Assembly (NCBI GenBank): GCA_003222945.1
Contig: QHXM01000063.1
Span: forward strand, 186 to 64,185
Direction of reading: 5' to 3'
Source: Acidobacteriota bacterium
Lineage (GTDB): Bacteria > Acidobacteriota > Blastocatellia > Pyrinomonadales > Pyrinomonadaceae
DNA: 64,000 nucleotides
Numbering within the stretch: position 1 is the first letter of the stretch; each line of letters begins with the position of its first letter. The notes beneath the pieces were generated by a model, which did not search any database, was not told the DNA's origin, and saw only the letters and a program-made list of their open reading frames with translations. This document shows, one piece after another, positions 16,284 to 58,244 of the stretch. Position numbers and translations under genes: made by a program.

Positions 16284-16285
16284 AG

Positions 16286-16355: not shown

Positions 16356-16359
16356 ACTT

Positions 16360-33430: not shown

Positions 33431-33570
33431 AAAAGCAGAATTCAGAAGCCAGAATGGGAAAGGGCCGCAAGCCAGTTTTCAGTTTTCAGTTTTAGTTTTG
33501 AGTTACGAGCCTTCTGAAAACTCAACACTGAAAGCTACTCTATTTATTCTGAATTCTGTATTCTGCTTTT
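33431..33570. repeat. composite palindromic element: CAGAAT-type outer element with nested GAAAACT-type hairpin
   Basis: AAAAGCAGAATTCAGAAGCCAGAATGGG...[CAGTTTTCAGTTTTCAGTTTTAGTTTTGAGTTACGAGCCTTCTGAAAACTCAACACTGAAA]...TTATTCTGAATTCTGTATTCTGCTTTT. Near-identical, in reverse orientation, to 58104-58244. Confidence 0.8.
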
Positions 33571-33575
33571 TTCTC

Positions 33576-33911
33576 TCAAGGCATTCTGTGCTCGCCTGAG
33601 ATTGTGAATCGCGCGGCCTCTTTGCCTCCTGCGCGCAACCAACTGAAAAATCGTTTTAGGGAGAGCCTGATCGTAGATTGCTGTGGGCGCGCCTGCGTCC
33701 TTTCGAGTTGTTCAGCCTCTGTGACAAGCTGACGAAAAGTGTAATATTCCTCGTCTGTGATTGCATCGAACAGGTCTTCGTCCATGTTCTCCATTGTGCG
33801 CGAGGTCGTGCAGATGGCGAATAGTGTTGCGCCCGCCGGAACATCCTCGCGCCTGTCCACGACGGCGAAATTAAGATAACGCGGTTGGCCTGTGGCATAG
33901 ATGACTCTCAT
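33576..33911 (-). CDS. 111-aa hypothetical protein
   Basis: ATG start with box E upstream. Acidic middle (MENMDEDLFDAITDEEYY). No family recognised. Confidence 0.5.
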   Translation of the reverse strand: MRVIYATGQPRYLNFAVVDRREDVPAGATLFAICTTSRTMENMDEDLFDAITDEEYYTFRQLVTEAEQLERTQARPQQSTIRLSLKRFFSWLRAGGKEAARFTISGEHRMP

Positions 33912-34012
33912 AACTATCCTCTGCCAGAGCCGGATAAAATTTCCTTGAGCGAGCTACTCAAACCGAATCCGTCAACTGACAATGAATAATTACACTACCG
34001 AAAGGAAGAGAG

Positions 34013-34031
34013 TCACCGCCCATGTGGGTAG
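34013..34031 (-). promoter_or_regulatory. box E: CTACCCACATGGGCGGTGA
   Basis: 102 nt upstream of the 33911 start. Confidence 0.55.
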
Positions 34032-34035
34032 TAAT

Positions 34036-34113
34036 CGAATGCGGAATGCGGATTGAAAAGCAAATGCTTCCGTCTTCTTAAATCCACAATCCGAAATCCG
34101 CATTCCGAAATCG
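34036..34113. repeat. GAATGCGG-word hairpin at the 3' end of puuD
   Basis: CGAATGCGGAATGCGGATTGAAAAG ... AATCCACAATCCGAAATCCGCATTCCGAAATCG. A degenerate half-copy lies at about 42421-42475. Confidence 0.65.
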
Positions 34114-34929
34114 TCAGGCTCTTCTGATAAACTTCGCAGCGATCCAGCCGAGCAGTATAAGAACAGAAGCAATGATCCAGTTGTAGCGGCTGCCGTAGGT
34201 GTTCGCGTAGTGATTGCTAATCATCAGGAAGACTGTGGGGACGACCATGAAGGTGTTGTGCTTGGAGCTAAGTTTCGCGCGCGCGCCAAGCCGTGCGTCC
34301 ACTTCGCGCCCCTCTTTTGTCGCCGCAATCATGCGCTTCTGTGCCGGTAAGATTCTCATCCAGACATTCGACACCATGATCGTTCCGAACATCGCGCCCA
34401 AGTGAAGATAAGCCCAGCGCCCGCTCAGCACGTGAGTCAAACCATAGGTTGCGCCTACGACGAGAATGTAAGCGACGACGGCAAACAATATCTCGTTCCT
34501 GCCTAGCGGCGACCGGACCAGCAAATCATAGACAACCCAGCCGACGACGAGCGTGCCTATGCCTATAAGGATGGCCGTAGAGCCTTTGATGTCCAGCACG
34601 TCCGGGTCAACGATGCCTGAGCCGCCGCCCAGGTAGGCCATCAGCGTTAGAAGCAGAAAGCCGCTTATCCAAGTCATCGCGGCCTCCCAGCGAAACCAGT
34701 GCAGGGAGCGCGTGCCCGGCCTCTTCTCCTTCTCTACAACGTAGAAGCCGCCGCTGTGAACCATCCAGACCTGCGCCTTCTCGTCGCCGCCACTCTTCTC
34801 TTCTTCATGAAGGCGCGCGTCGAGCCAGGTGAAATAGTAGGTCGTCCCAACCCACATGATGGCCGCGAAGACGTGCACCCAGCGAAAGATTAGATTGAGC
34901 CAGAGGTTCAACTCAGGATTAATGTCCAT
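34114..34929 (-). CDS. puuD: urate hydroxylase PuuD-like membrane protein (DUF989)
   Basis: Start moved to the ATG at 34929, 4 nt after the uraH stop. LNLIFRWVHVFAAIMWVGTTYYFTWLDARL and several TMs match my recollection of the PuuD/DUF989 family, and it sits in a purine-catabolic operon. Confidence 0.65.
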   Translation of the reverse strand: MDINPELNLWLNLIFRWVHVFAAIMWVGTTYYFTWLDARLHEEEKSGGDEKAQVWMVHSGGFYVVEKEKRPGTRSLHWFRWEAAMTWISGFLLLTLMAYLGGGSGIVDPDVLDIKGSTAILIGIGTLVVGWVVYDLLVRSPLGRNEILFAVVAYILVVGATYGLTHVLSGRWAYLHLGAMFGTIMVSNVWMRILPAQKRMIAATKEGREVDARLGARAKLSSKHNTFMVVPTVFLMISNHYANTYGSRYNWIIASVLILLGWIAAKFIRRA

Positions 34930-34933
34930 CCAA

Positions 34934-35278
34934 TTAGCTCCCGCGATACGTGGAATAGCCGAACGGATTGAGAAGTAGCGGAACGTGGTAATGCTCGTCT
35001 GCATCATGAACGAGAAAGACTACGGCAACGTGCGGATAGAAACTTCTAACGCTCCTTGCGTCGAAATAAGTTGCCGTATCAAAGACCAGGCGATAGACGC
35101 CCGGCTGCAAATCGAAATCATCCGGCAACAAATCCTTGAGTCGGCCATCCGCATCAGTCACACCTGACGAAAGCTCACGCCAGCCTCCGTCCTCTTCCTG
35201 CACATCCAAATGCACAGGCACACCCGCTGCCGGATGACCTTGCGAAGTATCAAGCACATGAGTAGTGATTGCGCTCAT
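34934..35278 (-). CDS. uraH: 5-hydroxyisourate hydrolase (transthyretin-like)
   Basis: ITTHVLDTSQGHPAAGV start and diagnostic C-terminal YSTYRGS; 114 aa. Confidence 0.9.
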   Translation of the reverse strand: MSAITTHVLDTSQGHPAAGVPVHLDVQEEDGGWRELSSGVTDADGRLKDLLPDDFDLQPGVYRLVFDTATYFDARSVRSFYPHVAVVFLVHDADEHYHVPLLLNPFGYSTYRGS

Positions 35279-35282
35279 ATCT

Positions 35283-35390
35283 AAAAGCAGAATTCAGGAG
35301 TCCGCAATTCAGAAGTCAGAAGGGATAAGGCTGAGAATCGTTTCTGTTTTTATTCTGAGTCTTGTGTTCCGAGTTCTGTATTCTGCCTTT
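35283..35390. repeat. CAGAAT-type palindromic element
   Basis: AAAAGCAGAATTCAGGAGTCCGCAATTCAGAAGTCAGAAGGGATAAGGCTGAG...TTATTCTGAGTCTTGTGTTCCGAGTTCTGTATTCTGCCTTT. The right arm encodes the last 13 codons of uraD, and the left end lies 4 nt from the uraH ATG. Confidence 0.8.
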
Positions 35391-35895
35391 CTATCAACTT
35401 CTTCAATCTAAGCTGTGTGATCTTGCGTTGCTCCTCTGCGGCGTTGCGAATCTCAATCTCGGCGTCGTTCATTAATCGCTCTTTCAGAATTGCAAGCATC
35501 TCGTATGCCGTTTTTCCTGTGGCGCAGATGATGTAGATGTAGCCGAACTTTTGCAAGTATTCTCGGTTGAGCGCGGCAAGCTCGCGGCGCACGTCTTCAT
35601 CAGCCGAGCGAGTTCCAGACTGCTCTTCCGCAGACCACTTGCCTGCTTCCTCAGCCTGCGCGCGTTCGGATTTCTTCTCGCCGATTTTGGGATGGCGACT
35701 GAAAGCCTCAAGCCAATCCTCTTCATCGAGCGCCCACCAGACGGCATCAGCCTTCTCAAACAACTCCTGAAGATTATGAGAGGGTCGCTCCTTTGCCATG
35801 CGCCGCGCCCAGAGAGTAGAGCCGCAAGCCTTCAAGAGTTCGCTTTCGGCCTCTTCTTGAGAGAGCGCGTTCAATCTTTCGAGACTCGTTTTCAA
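35350..35895 (-). CDS. uraD: 2-oxo-4-hydroxy-4-carboxy-5-ureidoimidazoline (OHCU) decarboxylase
   Basis: LNALSQEEAESELLKACGSTLWARRM...HPKIGE motifs; 181 aa; 4-nt overlap with the allantoicase gene. Confidence 0.85.
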   Translation of the reverse strand: MKTSLERLNALSQEEAESELLKACGSTLWARRMAKERPSHNLQELFEKADAVWWALDEEDWLEAFSRHPKIGEKKSERAQAEEAGKWSAEEQSGTRSADEDVRRELAALNREYLQKFGYIYIICATGKTAYEMLAILKERLMNDAEIEIRNAAEEQRKITQLRLKKLIERQNTELGTQDSE

Positions 35896-36899
35896 TCTTC
35901 GCTTCCCTTTATCGTCCCGTAGATTCGTAGGCGGGAAACTCCGCCGTCCGGGTAAATCTTAAATCGAACATGCGTGACCGCGCCCGCTGGCTTAATCTCT
36001 TCTTCATAGAAGTGGCGCGTGTGAGCTTGAAGTTTCGTTCGCGGAAGAATCTCTTTCCAAGCGAGTGACGAGATGTTTGATTCGTCAACCTTTTTATCTT
36101 CGTCGTCGCAAGCCTCTAGCGAACAGGCGTCTGGGTAGTTGCCTTTGAAGTGTGACGTATCAACTTCGATTCGCCTTATCTCTCCCTTCGCGCCGAGCTT
36201 AATCACGGACCAATCGTATCCAGGTCCGCGTCTTCGCTTCGTCTCCCAGCCATCGCTCATGTTTGCCGCGCGTCCGGGCATAATCAGATTGTGGCGATGC
36301 CCGAAGAACATATCGCTGCATGTGAGAACGAGCGCGCCGTTCTCTGCCGCAGCCAGATCAATCTCGCCTCTGCGTGAAAGAGCGCTCCAATCAGGCACGA
36401 CCTGGCCGTAAACTCTTAGCCGCGCAACGCCGCCGTCCGGGTAAATCTTAAATCGCAGGTGAGTGAAGCGCTCGTTCGCTTCAACCGCAAACGGGTTCTG
36501 CGAGTCGCCTTTAAGTTGAGAGATGGGAAGAATCTCGGTCCACTGAATCTCATCGCTCGTCAATCTCTCGACATCTGGGTTGCCTTCAATCGCGCACGCT
36601 TCAATTGAGCATTGCTCTGGATAATTGCCTCTGAAGAAACTCGTGTCGCAGACCACGCCGCGAATGATTCCGGGAAGTCCAAGACGAATAATGCACCAAT
36701 CGAAACCGGGCGTGCGGCGGCGGCGCGACTCCCAACCGTCCATCCATTTGCCGCGATCCGTGTACTTGCCCTCTATGAATATGGGCGCACTCGGCTTCAA
36801 CAGATTCTCCTTCGGCGCGAAAAAATCATCGTTCGCATAAAGCACTGCGCCGCCAAGACGCTCCGCAGCAAGATCAATCAACTCCGTAAAGTCCGTCAC
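35892..36899 (-). CDS. alc: allantoicase
   Basis: Two tandem allantoicase repeats (DGWESRRRR / DGWETKRRR; both end IYPDGGV.RLR.YG); 335 aa. Confidence 0.9.
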   Translation of the reverse strand: MTDFTELIDLAAERLGGAVLYANDDFFAPKENLLKPSAPIFIEGKYTDRGKWMDGWESRRRRTPGFDWCIIRLGLPGIIRGVVCDTSFFRGNYPEQCSIEACAIEGNPDVERLTSDEIQWTEILPISQLKGDSQNPFAVEANERFTHLRFKIYPDGGVARLRVYGQVVPDWSALSRRGEIDLAAAENGALVLTCSDMFFGHRHNLIMPGRAANMSDGWETKRRRGPGYDWSVIKLGAKGEIRRIEVDTSHFKGNYPDACSLEACDDEDKKVDESNISSLAWKEILPRTKLQAHTRHFYEEEIKPAGAVTHVRFKIYPDGGVSRLRIYGTIKGSED

Positions 36900-38266
36900 G
36901 CTTCACCTCGTCTTAACAGCATCTCGCCCGATGGCTTTTCGGAAAACTCTCCACGATCATAAATTTTGCGCCCGTGCAAGTATGTCTCTTCGATCACGCC
37001 GCTCAGAGCCCGCCCATTGTAAGGCGTCAGCTTGTGGCGATGTTGAATCATCGAAGGCTCTACGCGAAACTCCTTCTCAGGATTCCATATCACAATGTCC
37101 GCGTCGTAGCCTGCGGCAATCGCTCCCTTGCGCTTGTTTAGACCGACAAGTCTGGCGGGCGCGCGACACAACCACTCTGCCAGATGGCTCAAAGAAAATC
37201 CGCGCTCTCTCGCCAGCGTCCACATGATCGGAAGCCTTAGCTGCAAAGAGGAGATTCCGCCCCATGCTTCAAGAAAATTTCCGGTGTCCAGACACTTCAT
37301 GCCAGGAGGACAGGGGCTGTGGTCCGATACGACCATCTCAATCAATCCTTCACGGAGCGCGTGCCAGAGTTTCTCACGATTCTCGCGCTCTCTGACAGGC
37401 GGGCAGCATTTGAACTCGGTCGCGCCGTCCGCAATCTGTTCGGCTGCAAAGCATAAATAGTGCGGGCAAGTCTCAACTGTTATCTTCACTCCTTCGGCTT
37501 TCGCATTTCGCAAAGCCGGAAGCGCATCGGATGAAGAATGATGAACTATGTGAACGCGTGCGCCCGTCTCGCGGCTCAAGCGAATCATAAGCTCGACGGC
37601 TCTATCTTCAGCCTCGCGCGGGCGCGATCTCAAGAATGTGGAATACTTGCGCGGGTCCGTCTCTTTCTCTGCATCAAGCGCCTCTTCAATCGGCTCCGGC
37701 ACTTCGGCGTGTACGATGAGCACAGCGCCGATGCGCGCTAGTTCCGGCATGGCTTCTCTCAAATCACTTTCGGTCACGTTCGGAAACTCGTCAACGCCCG
37801 AATGAACAAGAAAGCATTTGAAGCCGACTACGCCAGCATCAAAAAGAGGTTGGAGCGCGGCCGCGTTTCCCGGCACGACTCCGCCCCAGAAACCAACGTC
37901 AACTGAGCATTTTCCACTGGCCGCCGCAAGTTTTTCCTTGAAATTCTCTAAGCTCGTTGTGGGCGGAATGCTGTTGAGCGGCATATCCACTACGCTCGTC
38001 ACACCGCCAGCCGCAGCCGCTCGCGTCGCAGTCTCGAAACCTTCCCACTGCGTTCTTCCAGGCTCGTTGACGTGAACATGCGTGTCAACGAGTCCGGGCA
38101 TCACTATGGAGTCCGCGCCCGCGTCAATCACTTCGCACGCGGGCGGAATCTCGTTGTAAGCCAGGACCGCGCTGATGATTCCGTCGCGTATGTGGACGGA
38201 AGCCGGAGCGACCGATTCAGGCAGAACAACCTTATGACCTCGAATGACGAAATCAGGAGAAGACAT
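36896..38266 (-). CDS. allB: allantoinase
   Basis: Amidohydrolase with GLVDTHVHVNEPGRTQWEG and downstream His/Asp ligands; 456 aa. Confidence 0.9.
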   Translation of the reverse strand: MSSPDFVIRGHKVVLPESVAPASVHIRDGIISAVLAYNEIPPACEVIDAGADSIVMPGLVDTHVHVNEPGRTQWEGFETATRAAAAGGVTSVVDMPLNSIPPTTSLENFKEKLAAASGKCSVDVGFWGGVVPGNAAALQPLFDAGVVGFKCFLVHSGVDEFPNVTESDLREAMPELARIGAVLIVHAEVPEPIEEALDAEKETDPRKYSTFLRSRPREAEDRAVELMIRLSRETGARVHIVHHSSSDALPALRNAKAEGVKITVETCPHYLCFAAEQIADGATEFKCCPPVRERENREKLWHALREGLIEMVVSDHSPCPPGMKCLDTGNFLEAWGGISSLQLRLPIMWTLARERGFSLSHLAEWLCRAPARLVGLNKRKGAIAAGYDADIVIWNPEKEFRVEPSMIQHRHKLTPYNGRALSGVIEETYLHGRKIYDRGEFSEKPSGEMLLRRGEA

Positions 38267-38270
38267 GCAA

Positions 38271-39131
38271 TCAATTCAGGCTTGTTAAGAAATCTTCCAG
38301 AACATTCTGAGCAACGCGCAGCCGGTATCGTGCGGTCGAACGAATATCATCTATCGGTGAAATCTCGCGTGCAAGTTCCAGGCGGGCTGCGCTAATTGTC
38401 TCCGCATTCACCTTGCGATTTCGTAAAACATCTTCCGTCCTCGAACATCTGATGACGGTTGGCGCAACGCTTCCCAATGCAATGCGAATCTCCTTGATCT
38501 CACTTGCATCAACTTGCGTAACAGCGGCGAAGCAGATTTTTGAGATGGCCTGCGCTTTTCGCGTTCCGACCTTGCGATAGTAATGAAGCAAAGGTTTGCT
38601 GACGCGTGGCAGATGAATGCTTTTAATCAACTCATCTTCACGCATACGCATCTGTTTGTAGCCCGTGTGAAAGCCGTTGTATGGAACGAAGCGCGAGCCT
38701 TGTGTGGAGACAAGCTCAAGCTCTGCGTCGTAAACGAGCAGCGCTGGAGGCGAATCGCCCGCAGGCGAAGCGTTTGCGATATTGCCTCCGAGCGTGCCGC
38801 GATTCTGAATCGCAAGCCCGCCCGTTTCAGATGCAGCCTGGCAGAGCATTGGAAACTCTTGTTGCAGAACTTCGTTTGCTTGAACATCCGTGTAAGTCGT
38901 CAATGCGCCGAGCGTGACAAACTCAGGCGTGACTTCGATTCCGCGCAACTCCGGCAAGTTCCAGATGTTGACGAACTTTTTGTGCAAGAGTTTTCCGGCC
39001 TCGAATAGGACCATCAAATCCGTCCCGCCCGCAAACGGCTTCCACACGCCCGGCTCATCCGACAGAAGAGTTAAAGCTTCGGTCAGACTCGCAGCAGGTT
39101 TTAGTTCGTACTCTGGAAGATAAGCTCTCAT
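38271..39131 (-). CDS. xanthine dehydrogenase family FAD-binding subunit
   Basis: FAGGTDLMV FAD-binding motif and CO-dehydrogenase flavoprotein C-terminal-like tail; 286 aa. Confidence 0.85.
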   Translation of the reverse strand: MRAYLPEYELKPAASLTEALTLLSDEPGVWKPFAGGTDLMVLFEAGKLLHKKFVNIWNLPELRGIEVTPEFVTLGALTTYTDVQANEVLQQEFPMLCQAASETGGLAIQNRGTLGGNIANASPAGDSPPALLVYDAELELVSTQGSRFVPYNGFHTGYKQMRMREDELIKSIHLPRVSKPLLHYYRKVGTRKAQAISKICFAAVTQVDASEIKEIRIALGSVAPTVIRCSRTEDVLRNRKVNAETISAARLELAREISPIDDIRSTARYRLRVAQNVLEDFLTSLN

Positions 39132-39242
39132 AAAAGGCAGAATACAGAATTCAGGAGTCAGGAGTCAGAATAAAAGAGAAACAGAATGGCTCTCGGCCTT
39201 ATCATTCTGGATTCTGAATTCTGGCTTCTGAATTCTGCTTTT
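39132..39242. repeat. CAGAAT-type palindromic element inside the xdh operon
   Basis: AAAAGGCAGAATACAGAATTCAGGAGTCAGGAGTCAGAATAAAAGAG...GGCCTTATCATTCTGGATTCTGAATTCTGGCTTCTGAATTCTGCTTTT. Starts at the base next to the FAD-subunit ATG and contains the last 13 codons plus the stop of the 2Fe-2S subunit. Confidence 0.8.
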
Positions 39243-39717
39243 GGCACGCTCTAACGACTGCTTCAAAAATCTTCATGTAGCCAGTGCAACGACAAAGATT
39301 ACCTGCGAGTCCTGTCCGAATGTCCGCTTCACTTGGATTTGGTGTTCTTTCCAGAAGATTAACGGCAGCGATGACCATGCCGGGCGTGCAGATGCCGCAT
39401 TGCGCGCCGCCGCAGGCGATGAAGGCTTCCTGGACCGCATGAAGCTGTTCGCCGCTCGCTATGCCTTCGATGGTTTTGATCTCCGCTCCTTCAGCTTGAA
39501 GGACCGGAACAAGACAACTGTTGACGAGGACGTTATCAATCAGGACAGAACACGCGCCGCATTCGCCTTCGCCGCAACCTTCCTTTGTGCCCGTCAATCG
39601 CAACTCTTCGCGCAGCACGTCGAGCAAGCGCGCCATTGGATAGACTTGAAGCGTGCGCGCTTCGCCGTTAACTTTGCAGTTGATTTCGACTTTGCGTGAA
39701 GCGTCAGCCACTTTCAC
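39202..39717 (-). CDS. xanthine dehydrogenase family 2Fe-2S subunit
   Basis: [11 protein letters not shown] and CGICTPG cluster motifs; 171 aa. Confidence 0.9.
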
Positions 39718-41710
39718 CTCCCAAAGCTTCTATCAAAGATTCGGGCATGAGCGGAATGTGATTGATGCTCGCTCCGGTCGCGTTCTCAATCGCATTCAGG
39801 ATTGCGGGCGCTGCGCCGTCCATCGGCAATTCTCCGATTCCTTTCGCTCCTGCTGGACCGTAAGCGTAAGGGTTCTCTTCAAAGAAGACGCGGATGGGCG
39901 GAATGTCCGCTGCGGTCGGGATGATGTAGTTGGTCATCTGATTGTTAATCATGCGCCCATCCTTCCAGACCACATTCTCGAAGAGAGTGTAACCAATGGC
40001 CTGCGCAACACCACCTTCAATCTGGCCTGCTGCGAGAATTGGATGAATGACTTTCCCAACTTCCTGCACGGCTACGAAATCGTCAACGCGCGCTTCGTAG
40101 GTCACAGTGTCAATCGTAACCTCAGCAACATAGACAGCCCATGCGTAAGCGCCGTAAGCGTCGCCCTCGTACTTTTCATCATCCCAGTTTATTCCGGGCG
40201 GCGCTTTGTACTTGCTGTAGGATTTGAGCGCGCCGTGCTGTTCGATGTAACTCCGGCAAGCCTGTCGGAAATCTTCCTGCGTGTAATTCTCTTTAAGTAA
40301 TCCGCTGCCGGAAAGCGTCTGCTTCAATCCAAGCACAGCGGATTCGACTAGCTTTCCGACGATCATGCAGGTGCGCGATGCCACAGTTGGTCCGCTATTG
40401 GGAACTGCTCCTGTGTCAGGCTTTGCGACTTCGATTGAATCGTAATCAAGTCGCAGAGCTTCGGCAGCAATCTGCGCGAAGATTGTATTAGTGCCCTGCC
40501 CTATCTCAGTGCTTGCTGCAAGAATTCTCACGCGCCCATCGGCAGTCGCTTCCGCGCCGACCACAGATTCCAGATACTTTTCGCCAGAGCCTGTGAAGCC
40601 CGCGCCGTGCATGAAGGAGGCGAAGCCCATGCCCTTTTTCTGGCGTGATGTTTTATTAGACTCCGCGAATCGTTCCTCTCCATGCGGTGGAGCATTTGTA
40701 GCAACTGCGCGGCTCTTGATGCGAACGTTAGGACAGGAATATGGTCCTGCAGCGTGAATCGTTCCGCGCGAGAGGACTACGGCAGAAAGAGTTGCGTAAG
40801 CTCCGCCGTCAATCACGAAATCTATCTCCATGCCGAGAAGTTTTCCGTCGCGCGAGACAGCCGTGCGATGCTTCGTCCATGAAGGATGGCGCTTGGTCGT
40901 TGATGCCATATCTTCGGCGCGGTCGTAAACAATCTTCACGGGGCGGCCAGACTTCCATGAGAGCAGCGCGGCGTGGCCTGCAATCATAGAAGGATACTCT
41001 TCCTTGCCGCCAAAACCTCCGCCGGTTTCAACCTGCACGACGCGAATTTTGTCTTCAGGCAATCCGAACAGTTTCAGAAGCGCCTTATGAACATAATATG
41101 GGCACTGCATAGAACCCCACACGGTCACGCCGTCCTCTGGACTCGCAATCGCAATCACTCCGTTGTTCTCTATGTAAAGCTGCTCCTGCGCGCCCGTCTC
41201 GTACTCGCCTTCGATGATGAAATCCGCGCTCTGCCAAACTTCGTCAACGTTTCCTTTCTCAACCTTGTAAGACTTGAAGAGATTATCTTCGCCCCAGATT
41301 ATCTCTTTCCTGTTCAAAGAATCTTCGAGCGTGAAGATTGCTGGCAGCGGTTCGATTTCAAGTTGAACGTTGCGGCGCGCTTCTTCAAGCAGGTGTTTGT
41401 CTGGATGAGCGAGAAGCAGGATAGGTTCTTCCGGGTGATTGATGAACTCATCTGCAAGATAAGGTTGATCGAGCAGGATTAGCGCGACGCAGTTTTCTCC
41501 GGGAATGTCTTTGGCTGTGACGATTGTGAACTCATCCCAGGGAATATTACCTTCAAACGAAATCTTCTTTATTCGTCCGCGCGCGACCGCACTGCGAACA
41601 GTCGCGCCGTAGAGCATTTCTGGAAAGATAAGGTCGTCAACATAGCGCGCCTGTCCTGTGACCTTATCGCGTCCCTCTTTTCGCGGCACAGGCCGCCCGA
41701 TGGTTTGCAT
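39704..41710 (-). CDS. xanthine dehydrogenase family molybdopterin-binding subunit, apparently carrying an in-frame internal deletion
   Basis: Aldehyde oxidase/XDH a/b-hammerhead and Mo-pterin domains are present (GGGFGGKE, QIEGG). At 668 aa it is about 80-100 aa shorter than usual, and ...ATNAPPHG is followed directly by EERFAESNK..KKGMGFA, so the conserved (A/T)FRGFG.PQ segment is absent (junction near 40678). Confidence 0.8.
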   Translation of the reverse strand: MQTIGRPVPRKEGRDKVTGQARYVDDLIFPEMLYGATVRSAVARGRIKKISFEGNIPWDEFTIVTAKDIPGENCVALILLDQPYLADEFINHPEEPILLLAHPDKHLLEEARRNVQLEIEPLPAIFTLEDSLNRKEIIWGEDNLFKSYKVEKGNVDEVWQSADFIIEGEYETGAQEQLYIENNGVIAIASPEDGVTVWGSMQCPYYVHKALLKLFGLPEDKIRVVQVETGGGFGGKEEYPSMIAGHAALLSWKSGRPVKIVYDRAEDMASTTKRHPSWTKHRTAVSRDGKLLGMEIDFVIDGGAYATLSAVVLSRGTIHAAGPYSCPNVRIKSRAVATNAPPHGEERFAESNKTSRQKKGMGFASFMHGAGFTGSGEKYLESVVGAEATADGRVRILAASTEIGQGTNTIFAQIAAEALRLDYDSIEVAKPDTGAVPNSGPTVASRTCMIVGKLVESAVLGLKQTLSGSGLLKENYTQEDFRQACRSYIEQHGALKSYSKYKAPPGINWDDEKYEGDAYGAYAWAVYVAEVTIDTVTYEARVDDFVAVQEVGKVIHPILAAGQIEGGVAQAIGYTLFENVVWKDGRMINNQMTNYIIPTAADIPPIRVFFEENPYAYGPAGAKGIGELPMDGAAPAILNAIENATGASINHIPLMPESLIEALGGESG

Positions 41711-41724
41711 TTTCAGCTTTACCT

Positions 41725-44634: not shown

Positions 44635-44640
44635 TTTGTT

Positions 44641-44753
44641 AAAAGCAGAATTCAGGAGTCAGAATCCAGAATTCAGAATAAAAGAAAAACAAAGAACGGC
44701 TCTGCGGCCTTATCATTCTGAATTCTGACTCCTGAATTCTGTATTCTGCTTTT
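44641..44753. repeat. CAGAAT-type palindromic element (glpK-glpD spacer)
   Basis: AAAAGCAGAATTCAGGAGTCAGAATCCAGAATTCAGAATAAAAG...GGCCTTATCATTCTGAATTCTGACTCCTGAATTCTGTATTCTGCTTTT. Its last T is the first base of the complement of the glpK stop codon. Confidence 0.85.
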
Positions 44754-46252
44754 CAATGACGCTCCCAGTCTTTAGCTCGCTCTACGGCTTTAAGCCAGCC
44801 CTCGTACAGCCTCTCCCTTTCCGCCTCATTCATCTGCGGTTCGTAGCGCCGCGCCACCTTCCACTTCGCGCTCAACTCTTCTCTGCTCTTCCAGAATCCT
44901 ACGGCGAGGCCAGCAAGATAGGCAGCACCCAATGATGTTGTCTCCGTTACGGCTGGCACTTCGACGGGCACGCCCAGGATGTCCGATTGAAACTGCATCA
45001 GAAAATCGTTAGCAACAGCGCCGCCGTCGGCTCGAATCTCTTTAAGTTTGATTCCTGAATCACGCTCCATAGCCCGGACCACATCGCGCGTCTGGTAGCA
45101 CATGCTCTCAAGCGCGGCGCGTGCAAGGTGCGCTCTCGTTGTTCCGCGCGTGATGCCTGCGATTGTGCCGCGCGCGTAAGCATCCCAGTGCGGCGCGCCT
45201 AAGCCCACCAGAGCGGGAACGAAATAGACGCCATCGTTCGAGTCCAATGATGCTGCCAAGCTTTCAGTCTCAGCAGCCGTCTTTATAATCCCAAGCCCGT
45301 CGCGCAGCCACTGGACCGCAGCGCCCGTGATGAAGACTGCGCCCTCCAGAGCATACTCAACCCGCCCATCACTGATGCCCCACGCTATTGTCGTCAGCAT
45401 CCCTTCTCTGCTTGCGACGGCTTCATGGCCTGTGTTTAGAAGAAGGAAACAGCCCGTGCCGTAAGTGTTTTTCGCAAGCCCTGCTTCATAACAAGTTTGA
45501 CCGAAGAGCGCGGCTTGCTGATCGCCAGCTATCCCTGCGATTGGAATTTTTTCTCCGAAGAAGACTGTTTCATCCGTGTAGCCGTAAACATGAGATGAAG
45601 GCTTTACAGTCGGCAGTAACGCTTCAGGAACATCTAGGATTTCCAGAAGCTCTTTATCCCAATCGAGAGTGTGAATGTTGAAGAGCAGTGTGCGCGAGGC
45701 GTTTGAATAGTCTGTGATGTGCGCTCGTCCTCCAGTCAATTTCCAGACGAGCCATGAATCAATAGTGCCGAAAGCTATCTCGCCGCGAGCGGCGCTCTCT
45801 CTTAATCGGTCCGTGTTATCCAGTAGCCATTTAACTTTTGTCCCGGAAAAGTAAGCGTCCACGACCAGACCCGTCTTGCTTCTAAAAACATCTTCAAGCC
45901 CGCGCGCCTTCAACTCATCACATATAGAAGCCGTGCGACGATCCTGCCAGACGATTGCTCTGCCGATTGGCTCTCCGCTTGCGCGATTCCACATCAAAGT
46001 AGTCTCGCGCTGGTTTGTGATTCCTATGGCTTTGATTTCAGAAGGCTGAACATTCGCGTTCGTCAGAGCTTCATGTAGGAGTTTGTGGCTGACCGCCCAG
46101 ATTTCTTCAGCGTCATGCTCGACCCAGCCGGGCTTAGGATAATATTGCGTGAACTCAGAGTACGCGCGACTCCTGACGTTGCCTTCCGCGTCGAAGATTA
46201 AAACTTTCGTGCCCGTCGTGCCCTGGTCAATCGCTAAGATGTAGCCTGTCAT
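44753..46252 (-). CDS. glpK: glycerol kinase
   Basis: [12 protein letters not shown] start and FGGY sugar-kinase motifs; 499 aa. Confidence 0.97.
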
Positions 46253-46258
46253 TGAAGC

Positions 46259-47896: not shown

Positions 47897-47912
47897 AAAA
47901 GTAGATGTCGTA

Positions 47913-47976: not shown

Positions 47977-47980
47977 TTCC

Positions 47981-49465: not shown

Positions 49466-49565
49466 TCAGTTGCTTTATTCTACAAACTAATCAACTCGTC
49501 ACGCCGCGAGTTTATCTTTCACATCGCATCGCGTTGCGGCTCTACTGTCTGCGCGCCGCTCGCGC

Positions 49566-50552
49566 TTAGATCACCCAGACCAGCGCGGTGAATATCGGTC
49601 CACGCTTTCTCAGGAAAAAGCCGTAGAATTTACGATTGAGAATTACAATCCCGGCCAATAGAAAAGGGATGATGAAGAGCAACTGCGGCTTTAGGATTGA
49701 AAGAAAGAGCAGCGCGATTGATAAGCCAAGAAGCGCGGCGCTTATTCTGTCGGATGTCTGTAGATTCAGGTCCTTAACAAGCGCGCGATTTTCTATAATC
49801 AGCTTAGACCAGGGGACAGCGCGGCAGAAAATATCTGCGCGCAGCCATGAGCGCAACGTCCAACGCTTCAGATGCTTGACCTGTAGTTCCTTGTCCAAAA
49901 GAATGCGATGCCCCGCGCGACGCAGACGATATCCGAACTCAATATCTTCGACGCAGCGCCAGTCACGGTTAAGCCCACCCAGACTCTGGAAGACTTCGCG
50001 GCGAACAGCACCGCAGCCGGTCCAGAAAGTTGACGCCTCGCGGTTTCCCTGTTGATGAACAAAATGGTGCTGAAGGTTCTTGTACTGCGACAGAAAATTC
50101 TTCTCCGCAGGCTCATCGTCGTAAGAACCGAAGAGTGCGGTTATATCAGGATTCGCGGCGAAGTCTGCCGCAACTCGACTGATAGTATCCGGCTTAACCA
50201 CTACGTCCGCGTCAACGAAGAAGAGGATTCGCCCTCGCGCGTGTTCAGCCGCCGCGTTACGGCCTGCGGACTGCCCCGTCTGCTTCTGCATCTCAAGAAG
50301 CGTGACACCTTTTCGTCGCGCTATATCGGCGCTATCGTCTGTCGAGGCATCGTCAACAACGATCACTTCGTAAGATGAGTAGGAAGAGGCGAGCAGCGCG
50401 TCAAGGCAGCGCTCCAGATAATGGCCTCCGTTGTAAACGGGAACGATCACAGAGATGAAGGCTTGCTCATTCGTCATAACTATCTTCGCTTTCGGTCTCT
50501 TAAAATTCGCCTCCGACGCCTGCCTCTGTTTCAGAGAGTGCGACCGTTTCAC
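49566..50552 (-). CDS. family 2 glycosyltransferase
   Basis: SVIVPVYNG, VVDDASTDDS and FVDADV (DxD). GTG at 50552 overlaps the flippase stop (GTGA); alternative ATG at 50477. Confidence 0.85.
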   Translation of the reverse strand: MKRSHSLKQRQASEANFKRPKAKIVMTNEQAFISVIVPVYNGGHYLERCLDALLASSYSSYEVIVVDDASTDDSADIARRKGVTLLEMQKQTGQSAGRNAAAEHARGRILFFVDADVVVKPDTISRVAADFAANPDITALFGSYDDEPAEKNFLSQYKNLQHHFVHQQGNREASTFWTGCGAVRREVFQSLGGLNRDWRCVEDIEFGYRLRRAGHRILLDKELQVKHLKRWTLRSWLRADIFCRAVPWSKLIIENRALVKDLNLQTSDRISAALLGLSIALLFLSILKPQLLFIIPFLLAGIVILNRKFYGFFLRKRGPIFTALVWVI

Positions 50553-53469: not shown

Positions 53470-53480
53470 AAAAACTTTCC

Positions 53481-53855
53481 CTACTTGTTCTTAAGAGCTA
53501 CGACCAGATTATAGACCCACGCTATAACGAAGCCGACGAGAAAACCTGTGACGAAGCCGTAAACCATTCCTATGAGACTGCCTGGGAACGTCACCTTGTA
53601 GCCTATGAAGAACTGACCCAGGAGAGCAAGGTGCGGACCGACAACCTCGCCGCCTTTAATCACAAGCCAGTTGGTGACGACGAAGATAAGAAGCCCGAGT
53701 ATGATGCCGAAGACTATGCCGAGCACTGTCCCGTTTATGCGCAGGACTGCTTGCTCTAATAGTTCTTCACCAACATCATCTGTTTCCGACATCTTTTCGC
53801 GCTGGTTAGATTTTGAAAATGCCGCACTCATTTTTCGCACTGCTCTCTCAGGCAA
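53481..53855 (-). CDS. small membrane protein (2-3 TM)
   Basis: 8-nt overlap with the upstream oxidoreductase gene; GTVLGIVFGIILGLLIFVV...; internal Met starts possible. Confidence 0.5.
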   Translation of the reverse strand: MPERAVRKMSAAFSKSNQREKMSETDDVGEELLEQAVLRINGTVLGIVFGIILGLLIFVVTNWLVIKGGEVVGPHLALLGQFFIGYKVTFPGSLIGMVYGFVTGFLVGFVIAWVYNLVVALKNK

Positions 53856-55371
53856 TCATTGAGGTTCTTTCAGGAACGCGTGGCTGTGTGGAAGCCAGAA
53901 GCGCAAACTCGTCTTCGCCATCGCTTTCGTGGCCCCTCACCTCTTCGTGATACTCCTGCTCGGCATTGACCTTCCACAGATCATAGTTTGCGCCCATGAT
54001 ATTTTTTACGGCAAGCATGGCCGTCAGCATCGAGTGGTCCTGATTATTATACTTGTGCATCCCGTTCCGGCCCACGAGTTGAAGATTGCCGAGACTGCTG
54101 CTGAGAAACTCGCGCACGGTCCGCAACGCTTCGGCATAGACCCCATCATACACCGGATAAGCCTTCGGCATTCTCACAACAGCGCCGTCTTCAATGTCGG
54201 AGGCTTTAGCAAGTCTGAGCGATTCCAACTCCCTCTTGCCCAACTCTACCAAATCCTTATCCGACATTGTCCACAACCCATCGCCCTCGAAGCAGAAGTA
54301 TTCCAGACCAAGACAGGTCTTCGTCTCGTCCGGGACCATGTGCGGACTCCAGTTCTTAAAATTCTGTATTCTACCGACCTTCACATCAGAGTCGTGTATG
54401 TAAATCCAATTGTCAGGGAAGAGATCGCTTTTACGAACGACCAGAGCGACGGTGAGAAAGTCTCTGTAACTCAGTTTATTTGCCGCTTCTCTAACATGCT
54501 CAGGCGCTGGCGGTTCGAGTTTAGCAATCAACTCTTTTATCGGCATCGTGCTGATGAAGTGCGTCCCGTCAATCACCTCTCGCTGTCCACCTTTGCTAAT
54601 CTCAAGCCCCGTCACTCTTCCTTCGGTCCACAGAATCTTTTCGACGCCTGCGTCGAATCGAATCTCGCTGCCCCGCCGCTTAACAATCTCTGCGACCGTT
54701 TCCCACATCTGGCCCGGCCCGCGCTCCGGGTAATCGAATGAATCAATGAGCGTCTTTATCACTTCGCCTTTTGAGCCTGCGCGTTGCTGCACGAGCGCGT
54801 TTTTGACTGCGGCCAGAAGCGACAATCCCTTGATGCGCTGCGCGGCCCACTCTGCGCGAATCTCGCTGCAAGGTATTCCCCAGACCTTTTCGGTGTAGGT
54901 CTTGAAGAAGATGTTGTAGAGGCGTTTGCCGAAGCGATTGGAAATCCACTGCTCGAAAGTCTCTTCGTTCTTTTCGGGCATCGTCTGAGCTTTCAGATAG
55001 CTCATGAAGATTAGGAAGCTGTTCCAGATGCCTAGACCGAAGAGCGCGTTCGTTGCGCGTAGCGGGTAATAGAAGAATTTTTTGTTGTAGTAGATTCTCG
55101 AAAGGCGACTGCGGCGCAGGAACTTTTCTTCCGTCAAAACTTCGCGCCACATAGCGTCAACAGCTTTCACTTTCGTGAAGAAGCGGTGCCCGCCTATGTC
55201 GAAATGGTAGCCTTTGTAATTGACGGTTCTTGAGATTCCGCCGACGACCACATCCTTTTCAAGCACTACGCTCTCGACGCCCGACTTACAAAGCTCGTAA
55301 GCCGCCGTCAATCCAGCAGGACCTGCGCCGACGATGACTACCTTCTTATTTTTGTTTTTCAAAATTCTCAT
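53848..55371 (-). CDS. NAD(P)/FAD-dependent oxidoreductase (amine-oxidase / UDP-galactopyranose-mutase-like fold)
   Basis: KVVIVGAGPAGLTAAYEL..VLEK dinucleotide motif; 507 aa. Confidence 0.8.
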   Translation of the reverse strand: MRILKNKNKKVVIVGAGPAGLTAAYELCKSGVESVVLEKDVVVGGISRTVNYKGYHFDIGGHRFFTKVKAVDAMWREVLTEEKFLRRSRLSRIYYNKKFFYYPLRATNALFGLGIWNSFLIFMSYLKAQTMPEKNEETFEQWISNRFGKRLYNIFFKTYTEKVWGIPCSEIRAEWAAQRIKGLSLLAAVKNALVQQRAGSKGEVIKTLIDSFDYPERGPGQMWETVAEIVKRRGSEIRFDAGVEKILWTEGRVTGLEISKGGQREVIDGTHFISTMPIKELIAKLEPPAPEHVREAANKLSYRDFLTVALVVRKSDLFPDNWIYIHDSDVKVGRIQNFKNWSPHMVPDETKTCLGLEYFCFEGDGLWTMSDKDLVELGKRELESLRLAKASDIEDGAVVRMPKAYPVYDGVYAEALRTVREFLSSSLGNLQLVGRNGMHKYNNQDHSMLTAMLAVKNIMGANYDLWKVNAEQEYHEEVRGHESDGEDEFALLASTQPRVPERTSMIA

Positions 55372-55592
55372 CTTAAGGCTGATCTATAAAGTCCTGGACC
55401 GAGGACCAGTTCGCCCTCAGTTTGACTATGTGAATGTAGATTGAGATGAACAGGTTTCGCCAGACCGCAAAGTGTACCAATCGAGATACCCAGCGCGGCC
55501 CGGTCCAGACGAGCGAAGGCTTGAACGATTAACTGATCGGTTGAAGCAAGTTTGGTTCGCTTCTTTTTCTTCATATAAAGAGATGTGCTCAT
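55368..55592 (-). CDS. possible small protein translationally coupled to the oxidoreductase gene
   Basis: Its TGA overlaps the oxidoreductase ATG (ATGA). The N-terminal part DQLIVQAFARLDRAALGISIGTLCGL resembles the 53481-53855 protein, while the C-terminal part is not membrane-like. Confidence 0.3.
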   Translation of the reverse strand: MSTSLYMKKKKRTKLASTDQLIVQAFARLDRAALGISIGTLCGLAKPVHLNLHSHSQTEGELVLGPGLYRSALR

Positions 55593-55915
55593 GGTCCGAT
55601 AATCTATAAAGGCGCTTCCGGCGAATACCGGCCTTGCCTGACACTTCTATAAATCACAAATAGGCGCGAATTCCCAAAGTAGTCTCTTAAATCTGAGGTT
55701 GAAAACCGCTCTTTGATTGAATGTAGTTGAGCGAGATTCACACGCTCCCGTCGATCTTCTTGTCAGCAGAAAAGTCTAATTAAACGCAAAGAGACGATAG
55801 CGCCCGCCCATCCGGGATGTCAATAAAATTGTTGGATAGATTTCGGATCGAGTTTTCATCGTTTCTTAATTCTTAATTTTTAATTCTCAACTCTTTTGTG
55901 TACGATGCTCAAGTC

Positions 55916-56652
55916 ATGGCTCGTAAAAACAGGAAGGCGGACGACGCTCGCTCGAAAGCTGAAGCGAAAGAGTCCGCTTCGTCAAAGAAGAAAGCTACAG
56001 AATCTATTCCGGCCAAGCCTGGACCACCAAAATCCGTCTGGCGCGAATATTTCGAGTCGGCCATCTACACGGCCATCATGTTCGTCTTCTTCATAACCTT
56101 CATAGGCCGCACCGTCGGCGTTCCCACTGGCTCTATGCAGAACACCATCGTCATCGGCGACCATTTCCTTATCAACAAGTTCGTCTTCGCGCCCGGCTCG
56201 CATCCCTTCTTCCTTCCGCAGCGCGACATACGGCGCGGCGACATAATCGTCTTCAAGTATCCGGGCGATAACTACAACCCGGGGCGCGACGAGGATAGCA
56301 AGCGCCGCTGGATATTCGTAACGATCCGCCGGGCGCAGGCGAGCCGTACACCGTCTATTACAAAGAGAGCACGATGTCGAATGGTCCAGACAAAGCTGAG
56401 AAGCCGCCTTCGATCTTTCACTTCGCGGTCGAGAAGCCTTACCAGATTCCACCCAACAACTACTTCGTCATGGGCGACAACCGCGACGATAGCGCCGACA
56501 GCCGCGCATGGGGAACAGTCTCCGCAGACCTGGTAATCGGTCGCGCACTTTTCGTCTTCTGGTCTAACGACGAGAGCGCCCCTTCAACCAATCCGCTGAT
56601 AGATTTTTTCAAGAACACAAGGTGGAGCAGGACCGGAAGGATGATTAAATGA
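55916..56652 (+). pseudogene. lepB: signal peptidase I, frameshifted (ORFs 55898-56536 and 56374-56652)
   Basis: ORF1 has the TM and catalytic-Ser box (VPTGSMQNT) plus GDIIVFKYP, then degenerates after ...DSKR. A second frame (open from 56299) carries LDIRND...NNYFVMGDNRDDSADSRAWG and the normal C-terminus. The junction at about 56299-56320 falls at the catalytic-Lys box. Confidence 0.75.
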
Positions 56653-56665
56653 GGATTCTTACTGC

Positions 56666-56914
56666 TTAACTCAACTCGTCCATCTCAGCTTCAATCGCCT
56701 GAAGAGTTCTTTGCAGCATGGCGCGATGCGCCGGCCTCGTTGCGCGCTCAAGTTGCGCGAGCGTTCGTGCGCGCGAGAGGCGTAGCGATTCAAGGCGGTC
56801 GAGGCGTGCGCGCATCTCTGGCGACAGATCACCCATCGCTGATTCTTTCTGAGCGCGCTCGCTTGCCTCTTCTATCTGAGCTTCAACAGCTTTGCTCTCC
56901 CAACCTCTAGCCAT
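56666..56914 (-). CDS. 82-aa helical hypothetical protein
   Basis: ATG at 56914 with GGAGGAG 1 nt upstream, in the 12-nt spacer after the channel gene stop. MARGWESKAVEAQIEEA... with heptad-like Leu/Arg pattern. Confidence 0.55.
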   Translation of the reverse strand: MARGWESKAVEAQIEEASERAQKESAMGDLSPEMRARLDRLESLRLSRARTLAQLERATRPAHRAMLQRTLQAIEAEMDELS

Positions 56915-56928
56915 CTCTCCTCCGCACC

Positions 56929-58092
56929 TCAATCAATATAGGTCTGCTTCGAGTAGTCATAGTCGCGCTCAGGCACAGGGCTTGATGAGAAGACCTGCGG
57001 GTTGCGCTCCCAGGCGCTAGTCTGCCAGTTGTCCATAGCGTTGCCCGGATGAATCCATGGCGGCATACTCATAAACAGAAACTTAGCCATTGAGTTCACA
57101 TAAGGCTCGTACATGCGACGCAACTCCGCGAGTTTCTTTTCCGCTTCAGTTCCATCGCGCAACGCTACGCCCGCAGTCTTTAGAGTCTCACGCATCTTTG
57201 CGAAAGTTTCAGGTTGAAGGCGATCATGGTCCGGCGCGCGAGGCGGTGTGTTGAATACTTGCGCCAGATCAACCAGCGCGTGCCGCGCCATAGCGAACGT
57301 CATCTTGGCCTGCCACATGGGCACGTCCTCTATGCCAACTACAATCAACGAGCATGTATCAAGAATCGTCGTCAACGAAGCAAGCCACGATTGATTCTCG
57401 TGCTGCGAGCGGAAATAGGCAAGCGCAGGGTAAGACAGATGACTCTCCAGCAATTCCGCAGCCCAATGCTCCCACTCGTGCAGGAAATCATCGAGCGCGC
57501 TTAAGCTTCGGTCACGACCGTGCCTTGCCAGCAACTCAGTCGCGCTCGGCGGCGACCCTGCGCGCGCGTCCAATAGAGAAATGTTCGACTCGCGCTTTGA
57601 GAAGGCTTGATAGATTACAGGCATGTAGCCTATGACGATTGCCAGGAATCCGAATCCAGTTCCGGCCTCAAGCACAGTCACAAAACGCGACAGAGACGTC
57701 ATGGGCATGATGTCGCCAAGCCCCAGCGTGAAGAAAGTCGTGCCGCTAAAGTAAAGGTCCGATCTAAAACTCGGCACTCCTGCGGCAACTCTGATACTAG
57801 ACCCGACAGCCCAATGAATCATTGAGAAGCCCAGAATCAGACCGCTTCCCCACACCACGAATAGCATAAGGAGCGAGAGTGGTCCGAAGAAGCCCAGGAA
57901 TCTCTCGCGCCACTTACCCGGTCGCATACGCTTCGCAATATTAGTGACCAGTCGCCACGTGTTCTTATAATAGAACCAAGTCAAACGCACCTTACGTGAG
58001 ATACGCCTCGGTAGTATGATCGTCTCAAATACATCCCAAAGGATGATTAGAATTACGATACAACCAAGAATGCCAACAAATGTGTGCATCAA
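56929..58092 (-). CDS. two-TM-pore ion channel family protein (K+-channel-like) with C-terminal cytoplasmic domain
   Basis: Pore-helix plus filter-like FFTLGLGDIMP between hydrophobic segments. TTG at 58092 is immediately followed by an ATG at 58089. Confidence 0.65.
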   Translation of the reverse strand: MMHTFVGILGCIVILIILWDVFETIILPRRISRKVRLTWFYYKNTWRLVTNIAKRMRPGKWRERFLGFFGPLSLLMLFVVWGSGLILGFSMIHWAVGSSIRVAAGVPSFRSDLYFSGTTFFTLGLGDIMPMTSLSRFVTVLEAGTGFGFLAIVIGYMPVIYQAFSKRESNISLLDARAGSPPSATELLARHGRDRSLSALDDFLHEWEHWAAELLESHLSYPALAYFRSQHENQSWLASLTTILDTCSLIVVGIEDVPMWQAKMTFAMARHALVDLAQVFNTPPRAPDHDRLQPETFAKMRETLKTAGVALRDGTEAEKKLAELRRMYEPYVNSMAKFLFMSMPPWIHPGNAMDNWQTSAWERNPQVFSSSPVPERDYDYSKQTYID

Positions 58093-58103
58093 AATAGCTC
58101 CGT

Positions 58104-58244
58104 AAAAGCAGAATACAGAATCCAGGAGTCAGAATAAATAAAGTAGTTTTCAGTTTTCAGAAGGCTCGTAACTCAAAACTGAAAACTGAAAACTCAAAAC
58201 TGGCTTCAGCCTTATCCCCTTCTGACTCCTGAATTCTGCTTTTT
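58104..58244. repeat. composite palindromic element (CAGAAT outer + GAAAACT inner), reverse-oriented twin of 33431-33570
   Basis: AAAAGCAGAATACAGAATCCAGGAGTCAGAATAAATAAAGTAG[TTTTCAGTTTTCAGAAGGCTCGTAACTCAAAACTGAAAACTGAAAACTCAAAACTG]GCTTCAGCCTTATCCCCTTCTGACTCCTGAATTCTGCTTTT. The last T belongs to the htrA-like stop codon. Confidence 0.85.

Follow-up and report, generated by a model that had tools for sequence, protein, structure and literature searches.

CAGAAT hairpin elements at operon gene junctions of an acidobacterial genome and their likeness to 23S rRNA intervening sequences

The 64,000-nt stretch of contig QHXM01000063.1 analysed here (hereafter the window), from a soil acidobacterium, has a G+C content of about 53%, carries an Acido-Lenti-1 RNA and encodes proteins whose closest relatives are annotated as Pyrinomonadaceae or Acidobacteriota. 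Six copies of a palindromic hairpin family, roughly 100–140 bases each and here called CAGAAT elements, lie between its genes. Their host operons encode trigger factor and ClpP, OHCU decarboxylase and HIUase, the FeS and FAD subunits of xanthine dehydrogenase (xdh), glycerol kinase and glycerol-3-phosphate dehydrogenase (glpK/glpD), and an HtrA-like protease and an ion channel. A preliminary description of the sequence had listed five copies and a shorter relative. All were recovered, with three corrections: the last copy ends at 58243, the relative at the tig/clpP junction spans 4339–4435, and the 39132 copy begins AAAAGGCAG. The copies are given below with the strand of their core, the scores on the better and the other strand of a profile hidden Markov model (HMM) built from four of them, and the folding z score.

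4339–4435, + strand: copy at tig/clpP, whose core is short and whose left terminus (AACAACAGAAT) is degenerate; HMM 81 bits on + versus 49 on −; z −5.6
33431–33570, + strand: composite copy with CAGAAT outer arms at 33431–33455 and 33546–33570, core start GGGAAAGGGCCGCAAGCC and a nested hairpin; z −4.9
33473–33535, no strand: nested CAGTTTT-heptamer hairpin in the 33431 copy, from sequence and tandem-repeat detection
35283–35390, + strand: copy at OHCU decarboxylase/HIUase, core antisense to the genes; HMM 91 versus 38 bits; z −2.8
39132–39242, − strand: copy at the xdh FeS/FAD subunits; HMM 112 versus 55 bits
44641–44753, − strand: copy at glpK/glpD; HMM 104 versus 66 bits; z −7.2
58104–58243, − strand: composite copy at the HtrA-like protease/ion-channel gene; z −8.4
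58145–58202, no strand: nested CAGTTTT-heptamer hairpin in the 58104 copy, whose loop AAGGCTCGTAA is that of the 33431 copy in reverse complement

Each element is built of AAAAG...CTTTT termini, heptamer arms of 25–45 bp that are 85–97% complementary, and an asymmetric apical core of 30–55 nt. Tandem Repeats Finder resolved the arms into tandem heptamers (CAGAATT, CAGGAGT and CAGAAGC) of the general form CAG(A/G)(A/G)NN. The shared terminal inverted repeats described earlier were confirmed by the motif AAAAGCAGAAT, which with at most one mismatch matched the window 11 times against 1.9 expected, a number reached in none of 100 shuffles; all 11 matches were ends of the six elements, and five copies had the motif at both ends. 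When searched in the window, the HMM recovered all six elements and nothing else. Every copy had by far the higher score on one of the two strands, so that the asymmetry of the core is real, and the orientations assigned before (39132 and 44641 on −, 35283 on +) were upheld. All six elements fold as long hairpins on the mRNA strand, with z scores of −2.8 to −8.4, and within the short family the two arms of one element pair slightly better with each other than with arms of different elements (p = 0.004). No Rfam family reached its gathering threshold at the elements, the weak sub-threshold matches all being miRNA-precursor hairpins. The 33431 and 58104 copies form a composite subfamily, one matching the reverse complement of the other at 77% over 99 nt; each holds a nested CAGTTTT-heptamer hairpin, and the AAAGCAG terminus of the nested hairpins recurs in a stand-alone CAGTTTT hairpin at 16281–16360.

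The open reading frames (ORFs) upstream of three of them, those of trigger factor, OHCU decarboxylase and the xdh FeS subunit, stop about 41 nt inside the element, at 4379, 35350 and 39202, respectively. The arms read CAGAAT... from either end, and in the frames of these three ORFs they stay open until the core, where the stop falls. At the remaining copies the upstream stop is fused to the terminal A-run (TGA-AAAG). Because of the three ORFs that end inside an element, the earlier statement that every copy sits exactly between a stop and the next start was only partly right. The coding features concerned are as follows.

4339–4379, + strand: last 13 codons of trigger factor (..QQNSEVRNQNSE, then the stop), encoded by the left arm
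35350–35390, − strand: last 13 codons of OHCU decarboxylase, supplied by the arm; the protein has 181 residues, and its Pfam domain stops at residue 165
39202–39242, − strand: tail of the xdh FeS subunit, arm-encoded after loss of the ancestral overlapping stop
39129–39131, − strand: start codon of the FAD subunit, abutting the element at 39132–39242
44753–44755, − strand: glpK stop codon TGA, overlapping the terminal A/T run of the element at 44641–44753

The elements rewrite the C-termini of trigger factor, the xdh FeS subunit and OHCU decarboxylase, and they leave no space for a Shine-Dalgarno sequence between element and start codon of the downstream genes. Two metagenome contigs of the same species (L119 and L121) end about 40–70 nt before the 35283–35390 copy.

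Copies in other genomes were sought by a scan with a 17-letter pattern, one genome per species, which gave at least 118 loci; most matches were due to chance, and the source genome was not among the loci. At least about 28 were real copies, nearly all in metagenome-assembled genomes (MAGs) of Acidobacteriota/Pyrinomonadaceae, with several per MAG; among the matches listed, a few copies were in Gemmatimonas, Geothermobacter and deltaproteobacterial MAGs. The likeness of these loci to the window was limited to the element, with 74–85% identity over its full length, and the loci themselves were unrelated. Such copies at unrelated loci of several related genomes support the earlier view of a dispersed non-coding palindromic family that has spread. 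Identity was 0.75 between copies within a genome and 0.70 between genomes (permutation p < 0.0002), and the nearest neighbour of a copy was usually from the same genome, a pattern that is consistent with amplification or homogenisation within lineages. Of 30 copies among the matches listed, 24 lay between co-directional genes, several of them between subunits of one enzyme. In 18 of these 24 co-directional cases the upstream ORF ended within the element or at most 2 nt from its boundary, and in 12 the downstream start was at most 8 nt away, often as CTGCTTTT-ATG; the core was in sense to the genes in 16 copies and antisense in 11 (again among the matches listed).

To these were added loci from relatives, so that 225 loci (L-numbers), about 1.35 Mb in all, were fetched. 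The xdh FeS/FAD junction was compared with that of 80 metagenomic relatives of 66–99% identity. Most of them have a 4-nt stop/start overlap, ..CAAAAATGA or ..CAGAAGTGA (..TGC CAA AAA TGA or ..CAG AAG TGA): the FeS proteins end in ..ACQK, and the TGA overlaps the ATG or GTG of the FAD gene. The window reads ..TGCCAAAAG, then the element, then CTGCCTTTT ATGAGAGC, and the FeS subunit has lost its stop and gained the arm-encoded tail. Between glpK and glpD, where the window has a CAGAAT element, L215 and L216 have an empty spacer of 10 nt. The tig/clpP junction is empty in L219 and filled in the window, L218 and L220; in L218 the whole acidic tail of trigger factor is replaced by the element. Because empty orthologous sites were found at all three junctions, the elements are insertions and not ancestral sequence; the preliminary description had proposed such a comparison. 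Among 120 trigger-factor homologs, 10 had an arm-encoded C-terminus by a strict test (e.g. QNSESRIQNSE, then the stop) and 79 kept the canonical ..SSSPEA. At the same tig/clpP site as in the window, L220, whose tig is 92% identical, carries an element (2570–2700) with a core of different sequence in the opposite orientation, which suggests either flipping or replacement of the core via the inverted arms, or repeated insertion into a hot spot.

The same junctions also house other hairpins. At FeS/FAD, L123 has a GTGATGA-heptamer hairpin, L124 has AATCTGA heptamers, and in L127 (1950–2392) a GxxExxY/PDDEXK_3 gene is enclosed by arms of CACAGAGGC nonamers; these other lineages filled the junction independently. 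At glpK/glpD, L213 has a TGAACNN hairpin, and the hairpins of L214 and L217 are of the CACAGAGG type. An insert of about 640 nt with its own ORF (MLDLYEEL..) lies between the FeS and FAD genes in L138, L143, L146, L149, L161, L164, L172, L186, L189, L191, L195 and L196, and this junction is a general insertion hot spot. Inverted arms of tandem repeats bracket genes of the GxxExxY/PDDEXK_3 nuclease fold (PF13366, TIGR04256) in L127 (1950–2392, nonamers) and in L075 (4684–5391, 10-mers), a second family of tiny genes housed in tandem-repeat-armed hairpins. The ORF of the xdh molybdopterin subunit (39704–41710) has 668 aa in the window instead of 740 aa: at 40677/40678 it lacks 72 codons (216 nt) that the same-species contigs L119 and L120 have, the conserved FRGFGAPQ.. 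segment among them, through either an in-frame deletion or a difference in assembly.

The left junctions of the elements fall in the arm where native sequence already matches the end of the element, namely at CAAAA(A/G) of the FeS gene and at GAACAGAAT of the tig tail. Because the junctions overlap these short matches between target and element end, capture by microhomology or template switching is suggested over cut-and-paste transposition, and the matches may be the traces of microhomology-mediated capture.

Arms of the CAGAAT/CAGAAG type were also found to bracket a gene. In four independent places, namely L047 (Pyrinomonadaceae, E 1e-34), L082 (Ignavibacteriales, with the exact terminus AAAAGCAGAATTCAGGAG) and L110 and L019 (Acidobacteriota), they flank a gene for a protein of about 122 aa of the family PF05635/TIGR02436 ('23S rRNA intervening sequence protein', S23p, an Avd-like four helix bundle). 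The last codons of the PF05635 ORF are encoded by the arm, as are the C-termini of nearly all of the 120 closest homologs, which end in ..ILDSGS, ..ILAPGS, ..LLTPDS or ..ILNSGF. These 120 are orthologs at a single locus, pilS/IVP/pilR, where the two arms vary between species, yet change together. Here pilS and the ATG of the four-helix-bundle gene are separated by an entire short element, core included (L210, 9830–10000; L211, 1–85); L210 has a second, inverted copy of the left half of the core and hence a longer stem, which looks like palindromisation. Outside these phyla, in the cultured cyanobacterium Nostoc punctiforme PCC 73102, plasmid pNPUN01 has (TCAGGAG/TCAGAAT)n before the ATG of WP_012412918.1 ('four helix bundle protein') and (ACTCCTG)n after the gene, and this protein is 67% identical to the acidobacterial PF05635 protein. 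Arms and PF05635 gene occur together in Nostoc sp. C052 as well, and ORF-less CAGAAT-arm hairpins are likewise present on Nostoc plasmids. The family is very large, with more than 8000 close matches in one search. A CAGA-ATG context precedes the gene in L047, L082 and L212 and is kept in 17 of 29 short cores; it is all that short elements and PF05635 ORFs have in common. The idea that the short elements are internal-deletion derivatives of the PF05635 gene gained no support: the core HMM scored 2.8 bits against the ORFs in sense (shuffles up to 11.5) and had no match on the reverse strand.

These properties recall the intervening sequences (IVSs) of 23S rRNA genes. In Coxiella burnetii, inverted repeats at the borders of the IVS pair into a stem of 28 bp, GACAGAT is repeated two or three times in tandem and followed by GACAGAA-TG, the start of S23p (PF05635), the copy number of the heptamers varies between strains, and the stem is cut in its middle by RNase III; the origin and function of these IVSs were called unclear (PMC4990558). 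The IVSs of Coxiella burnetii and Leptospira (PMC4990558) share with the elements described here the terminal inverted repeats, the long stem, CAGAxxx-type heptamers in a 5′ arm that runs into a start codon, the PF05635/TIGR02436 ORF (in the arm-sharing relatives), a heptamer number that varies between strains or species, and a sporadic distribution suggestive of horizontal transfer. They differ in that IVSs reside in helices 9, 25 or 45 of 23S rRNA, whereas all six window copies lie between protein-coding genes, are ORF-less and have a conserved core of their own; the window holds no rRNA gene. RNase III excision, too, is established for the IVSs and would only by analogy extend to the window copies. 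At the level of sequence, then, the architecture is the same as that of the characterised Coxiella rRNA IVS, and arms and terminus are common to PF05635-carrying elements across phyla. The link to 23S rRNA IVSs and S23p had been missed in the preliminary description, as had the many further families of heptamer-arm hairpins that the window has besides CAGAAT. We found no publication that links heptamer-arm hairpins of operons with S23p genes or describes such hairpins in Acidobacteriota.

In the window, about 17 hairpins between genes, the six CAGAAT copies included, have arms of short period, and these are built of many different repeat units. The period was 7 or 14 in 33 of its 54 Tandem Repeats Finder rows. 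Window and loci together (about 1.2 Mb) gave 139 inverted repeats whose arms measure 21 nt or more; 40 of them had period-7 arms, every other period accounting for at most 3. Nostoc and Xanthomonas have an excess of intergenic heptamer repeats of unknown role; the GGGAATC repeats of Xanthomonas often form convergent pairs able to fold into stem-loops, at 70–75 pairs per genome (PMC4692102). The short tandemly repeated repetitive (STRR) sequences of Calothrix and Nostoc and the heptameric simple sequence repeat (SSR) pairs of Xanthomonas (PMC4692102) are, like the window elements, tandem 7-nt units in intergenic, transcribed DNA, often in convergent stem-loop pairs and of varying length between relatives, and CAGAAT-type arms themselves occur on plasmids of Nostocales. 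They were described as simple repeats or G-quadruplex motifs, with no termini, core or insertion evidence reported, and differ from the window heptamers, which are A/T-rich and not G-rich. We place the elements described here as IVS-like/STRR-like hairpins; they are neither repetitive extragenic palindromes (REPs) nor, by location, rRNA IVSs.

Other small palindromic repeats were compared. The enterobacterial repetitive intergenic consensus/intergenic repeat unit (ERIC/IRU), the repeat units RU-2/RU-3 and the Correia/NEMIS elements are likewise imperfect palindromes of 100–170 bp, co-transcribed in operons in either orientation and present or absent between strains. They differ in duplicating a TA target and in having non-repetitive arms, whereas the window family has no target-site duplication, tandem-heptamer arms and an association with PF05635. 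Correia elements are substrates of RNase III, and ERICs modulate mRNA stability. ORFs can be lengthened at their 3′ ends by elements of these families (PMC2759123).

The CAGAAT elements are thus probably small hairpin insertion elements, ORF-less and IVS-like, that are selfish or neutral. They were inserted into the few bases between, or overlapping, an upstream stop and a downstream start; where stop and start overlapped ancestrally, the upstream ORF now runs about 13 codons into the arm. An element would be co-transcribed with the operon, and the transcript would fold as one long stem, bringing the upstream stop and the downstream start together again where the ancestral genes overlapped. 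The stem would probably be a substrate of RNase III, or hold back exonucleases, or both, in the manner of rRNA IVSs, and such folding and probable processing may be why operons tolerate the elements with the core in either orientation. Spread would proceed by copy-and-paste within genomes with occasional horizontal transfer, through capture by microhomology or template switching and not by classical cut-and-paste transposition, and the arm heptamers would then expand, contract and homogenise by slippage.

Several results weigh against this explanation. A target-site duplication, which the preliminary description had proposed to look for, was absent from the flanks of about 25 copies, the TA model included. 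Four contigs of the same species (99.8–99.9% identical) showed no polymorphism of insertion or repeat number, and copies within one genome are only about 75–86% identical; because of this divergence and the identical elements in the same-species contigs there is no sign of recent activity. No mobility enzyme for the family was identified in the window ORFs or the approximately 1.35 Mb of fetched loci, the window contains no PF05635 gene, and the four-helix-bundle protein is not known to be a recombinase. Since the core lacks significant similarity to the ORF on either strand, a derivation of the short elements from those with an ORF is conjectural, and the arms of the two kinds could have been acquired independently. 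Finally, we infer RNase III processing, co-transcription and any effect on expression by analogy.

A wider and much more tentative proposal is that rRNA IVSs, STRRs and operon hairpins might belong to one cross-phylum superfamily with tandem CAGNNNN arms. S23p, its only protein, would recognise the stem of heptamers and so serve maintenance, processing or mobility, an RNA or template-switch intermediate possibly being involved, and ORF-less copies would be non-autonomous. We consider this rather doubtful as it stands. One answer may cover three puzzles: the origin and mobility of 23S rRNA IVSs (PMC4990558), the function of the S23p family and the excess of intergenic heptamer repeats (PMC4692102). 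The sharing of arms with PF05635 genes links the operon hairpins to the unexplained intervening sequences of rRNA genes, and the CAGAAT family offers many natural pairs of filled and empty sites in ordinary operons for these questions.

An unlikely alternative to small IVS-like insertions is a classical miniature inverted-repeat transposable element (MITE), a remnant of an insertion sequence after internal deletion, which a DDE or other transposase would move in trans by recognising its inverted AAAAGCAGAAT termini. The MITE-like character proposed earlier is borne out by the terminal inverted repeats, small size, several copies, sharp boundaries and presence or absence at orthologous sites. 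The mode of mobility speaks against it: no duplication of the target site is seen consistently, the bases beside the elements being G, T or C without pattern and the palindrome simply extending in some copies, and the left junctions fall within the arm at native CAGAAT or A-run matches. A transposase-bearing parent was not found either. The earlier remark that no transposase is nearby holds for the window ORFs scanned against Pfam, and the 225 fetched loci (about 1.35 Mb) showed none beside a copy; where versions with these arms or this terminus have an ORF, it encodes PF05635 and no transposase. Because neither a target-site duplication nor a transposase parent was found, the elements cannot be filed as MITEs.

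It is also improbable that the hairpins are primarily a host-selected intercistronic RNA device, such as a partial terminator, a barrier to 3′-exonucleases or a translation-coupling hairpin, with mobility incidental. The position of these stable hairpins exactly at stop/start junctions in operons would be explained, as would the covariation of the arms within a locus, the retention of the pilS/pilR copy across many species, and a stem that sets UGA beside AUG where ancestral genes overlapped. Most relatives, however, have no element at the same junctions, and different repeat families substitute for one another at one site. The orientation of the core is not fixed (16:11 among the matches listed), the T-tail has four T with no canonical terminator called, and insertion truncated or extended upstream proteins, as with the trigger-factor tail of L218.

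Some more specific roles were tried and rejected. A dedicated terminator, as suggested in the preliminary description, is unlikely: an intrinsic terminator would have a short G+C-rich stem followed by at least five U at the end of an operon, whereas the tail here is UUUU, the terminator scan made no call, and the elements lie inside operons (24 of 30 copies between co-directional genes, among the matches listed). The core was likewise rejected as a small terminator hairpin, with no consensus pairs found by RNAalifold in 25 cores, no call in the scan and the 16 sense to 11 antisense orientations given above. Selection of the heptamers for stops in three frames was not borne out, since 7 (entry arm) and 9 (exit arm) of 23 heptamer families have a stop, against 0.49 and 0.30 expected per family. 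Carriage by a phage gave no match, and phase-variable repeat number was discarded with the four same-species contigs identical across the elements.

Very unlikely is a REP/REPIN-type element, in which single-stranded DNA hairpins would be handled by an IS200/IS605-like Y1 transposase (the REP-associated tyrosine transposase, RAYT). REPs, bacterial interspersed mosaic elements (BIMEs) and REPINs resemble the window family in being hairpin-forming extragenic palindromes of high local density, in both orientations and without target duplication, with possible roles as mRNA stabilisers. The REP/BIME assignment offered earlier is contradicted by the absence of a GTAG/CGTC head, the termini being AAAAGCAG, by tandem-repeat arms and stems of 25–45 bp, far longer than a 20–40-nt palindrome would give, and by the absence of a RAYT or TnpA gene from the window ORFs scanned and the fetched loci.

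That the hairpins are not mobile at all and arose locally by 7-nt slippage and quasipalindrome (template-switch) correction, their likeness being convergent, is scarcely credible: the dominance of period 7 among inverted repeats (40 of 139, other periods at most 3), the many unrelated heptamers that build the same architecture, the resemblance of native junction sequence to the first heptamer and the palindromised core of L210 would fit, but the asymmetric core of 30–55 nt and the 11-nt termini are conserved at 70–90% identity across unrelated loci and genomes, which excludes convergence for the CAGAAT family. Local slippage and template switching may nevertheless account for growth and turnover of the arms.

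Apart from the CAGAAT elements, the window contains eleven intergenic hairpins with arms of tandem heptamers or nonamers, their units being CCACAGAGG, AAGTTTC, GTGATGA/GGACTGA, CAGTTTT, AAGGATG, AAGTCCA, AAATCCG and others.

317–419: hairpin with tandem-repeat arms and an ATTTGAA mini-hairpin nested inside
5033–5091: hairpin with tandem-repeat arms
11290–11365: hairpin with tandem-repeat arms
13683–13758: hairpin with tandem-repeat arms
15800–15870: hairpin with tandem-repeat arms
16281–16360: hairpin with tandem-repeat arms (the stand-alone CAGTTTT hairpin)
22474–22577: hairpin with tandem-repeat arms
24761–24836: hairpin with tandem-repeat arms
29154–29223: hairpin with tandem-repeat arms
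34037–34112: hairpin with tandem-repeat arms
61840–61905: hairpin with tandem-repeat arms

The most stable local structure of the window is of another kind, a perfect G+C-rich inverted repeat of 26 bp with a 12-nt loop at 24129–24192, between 22636–24084 and 24235–24768. The Acido-Lenti-1 match to Rfam (59910–59957) lies within a G+C-rich repeat region of several short hairpins (59850–60022), and G+C-rich hairpin-forming repeats that by eye are similar to this region occupy the FeS/FAD junction in L160, L171 and L192.

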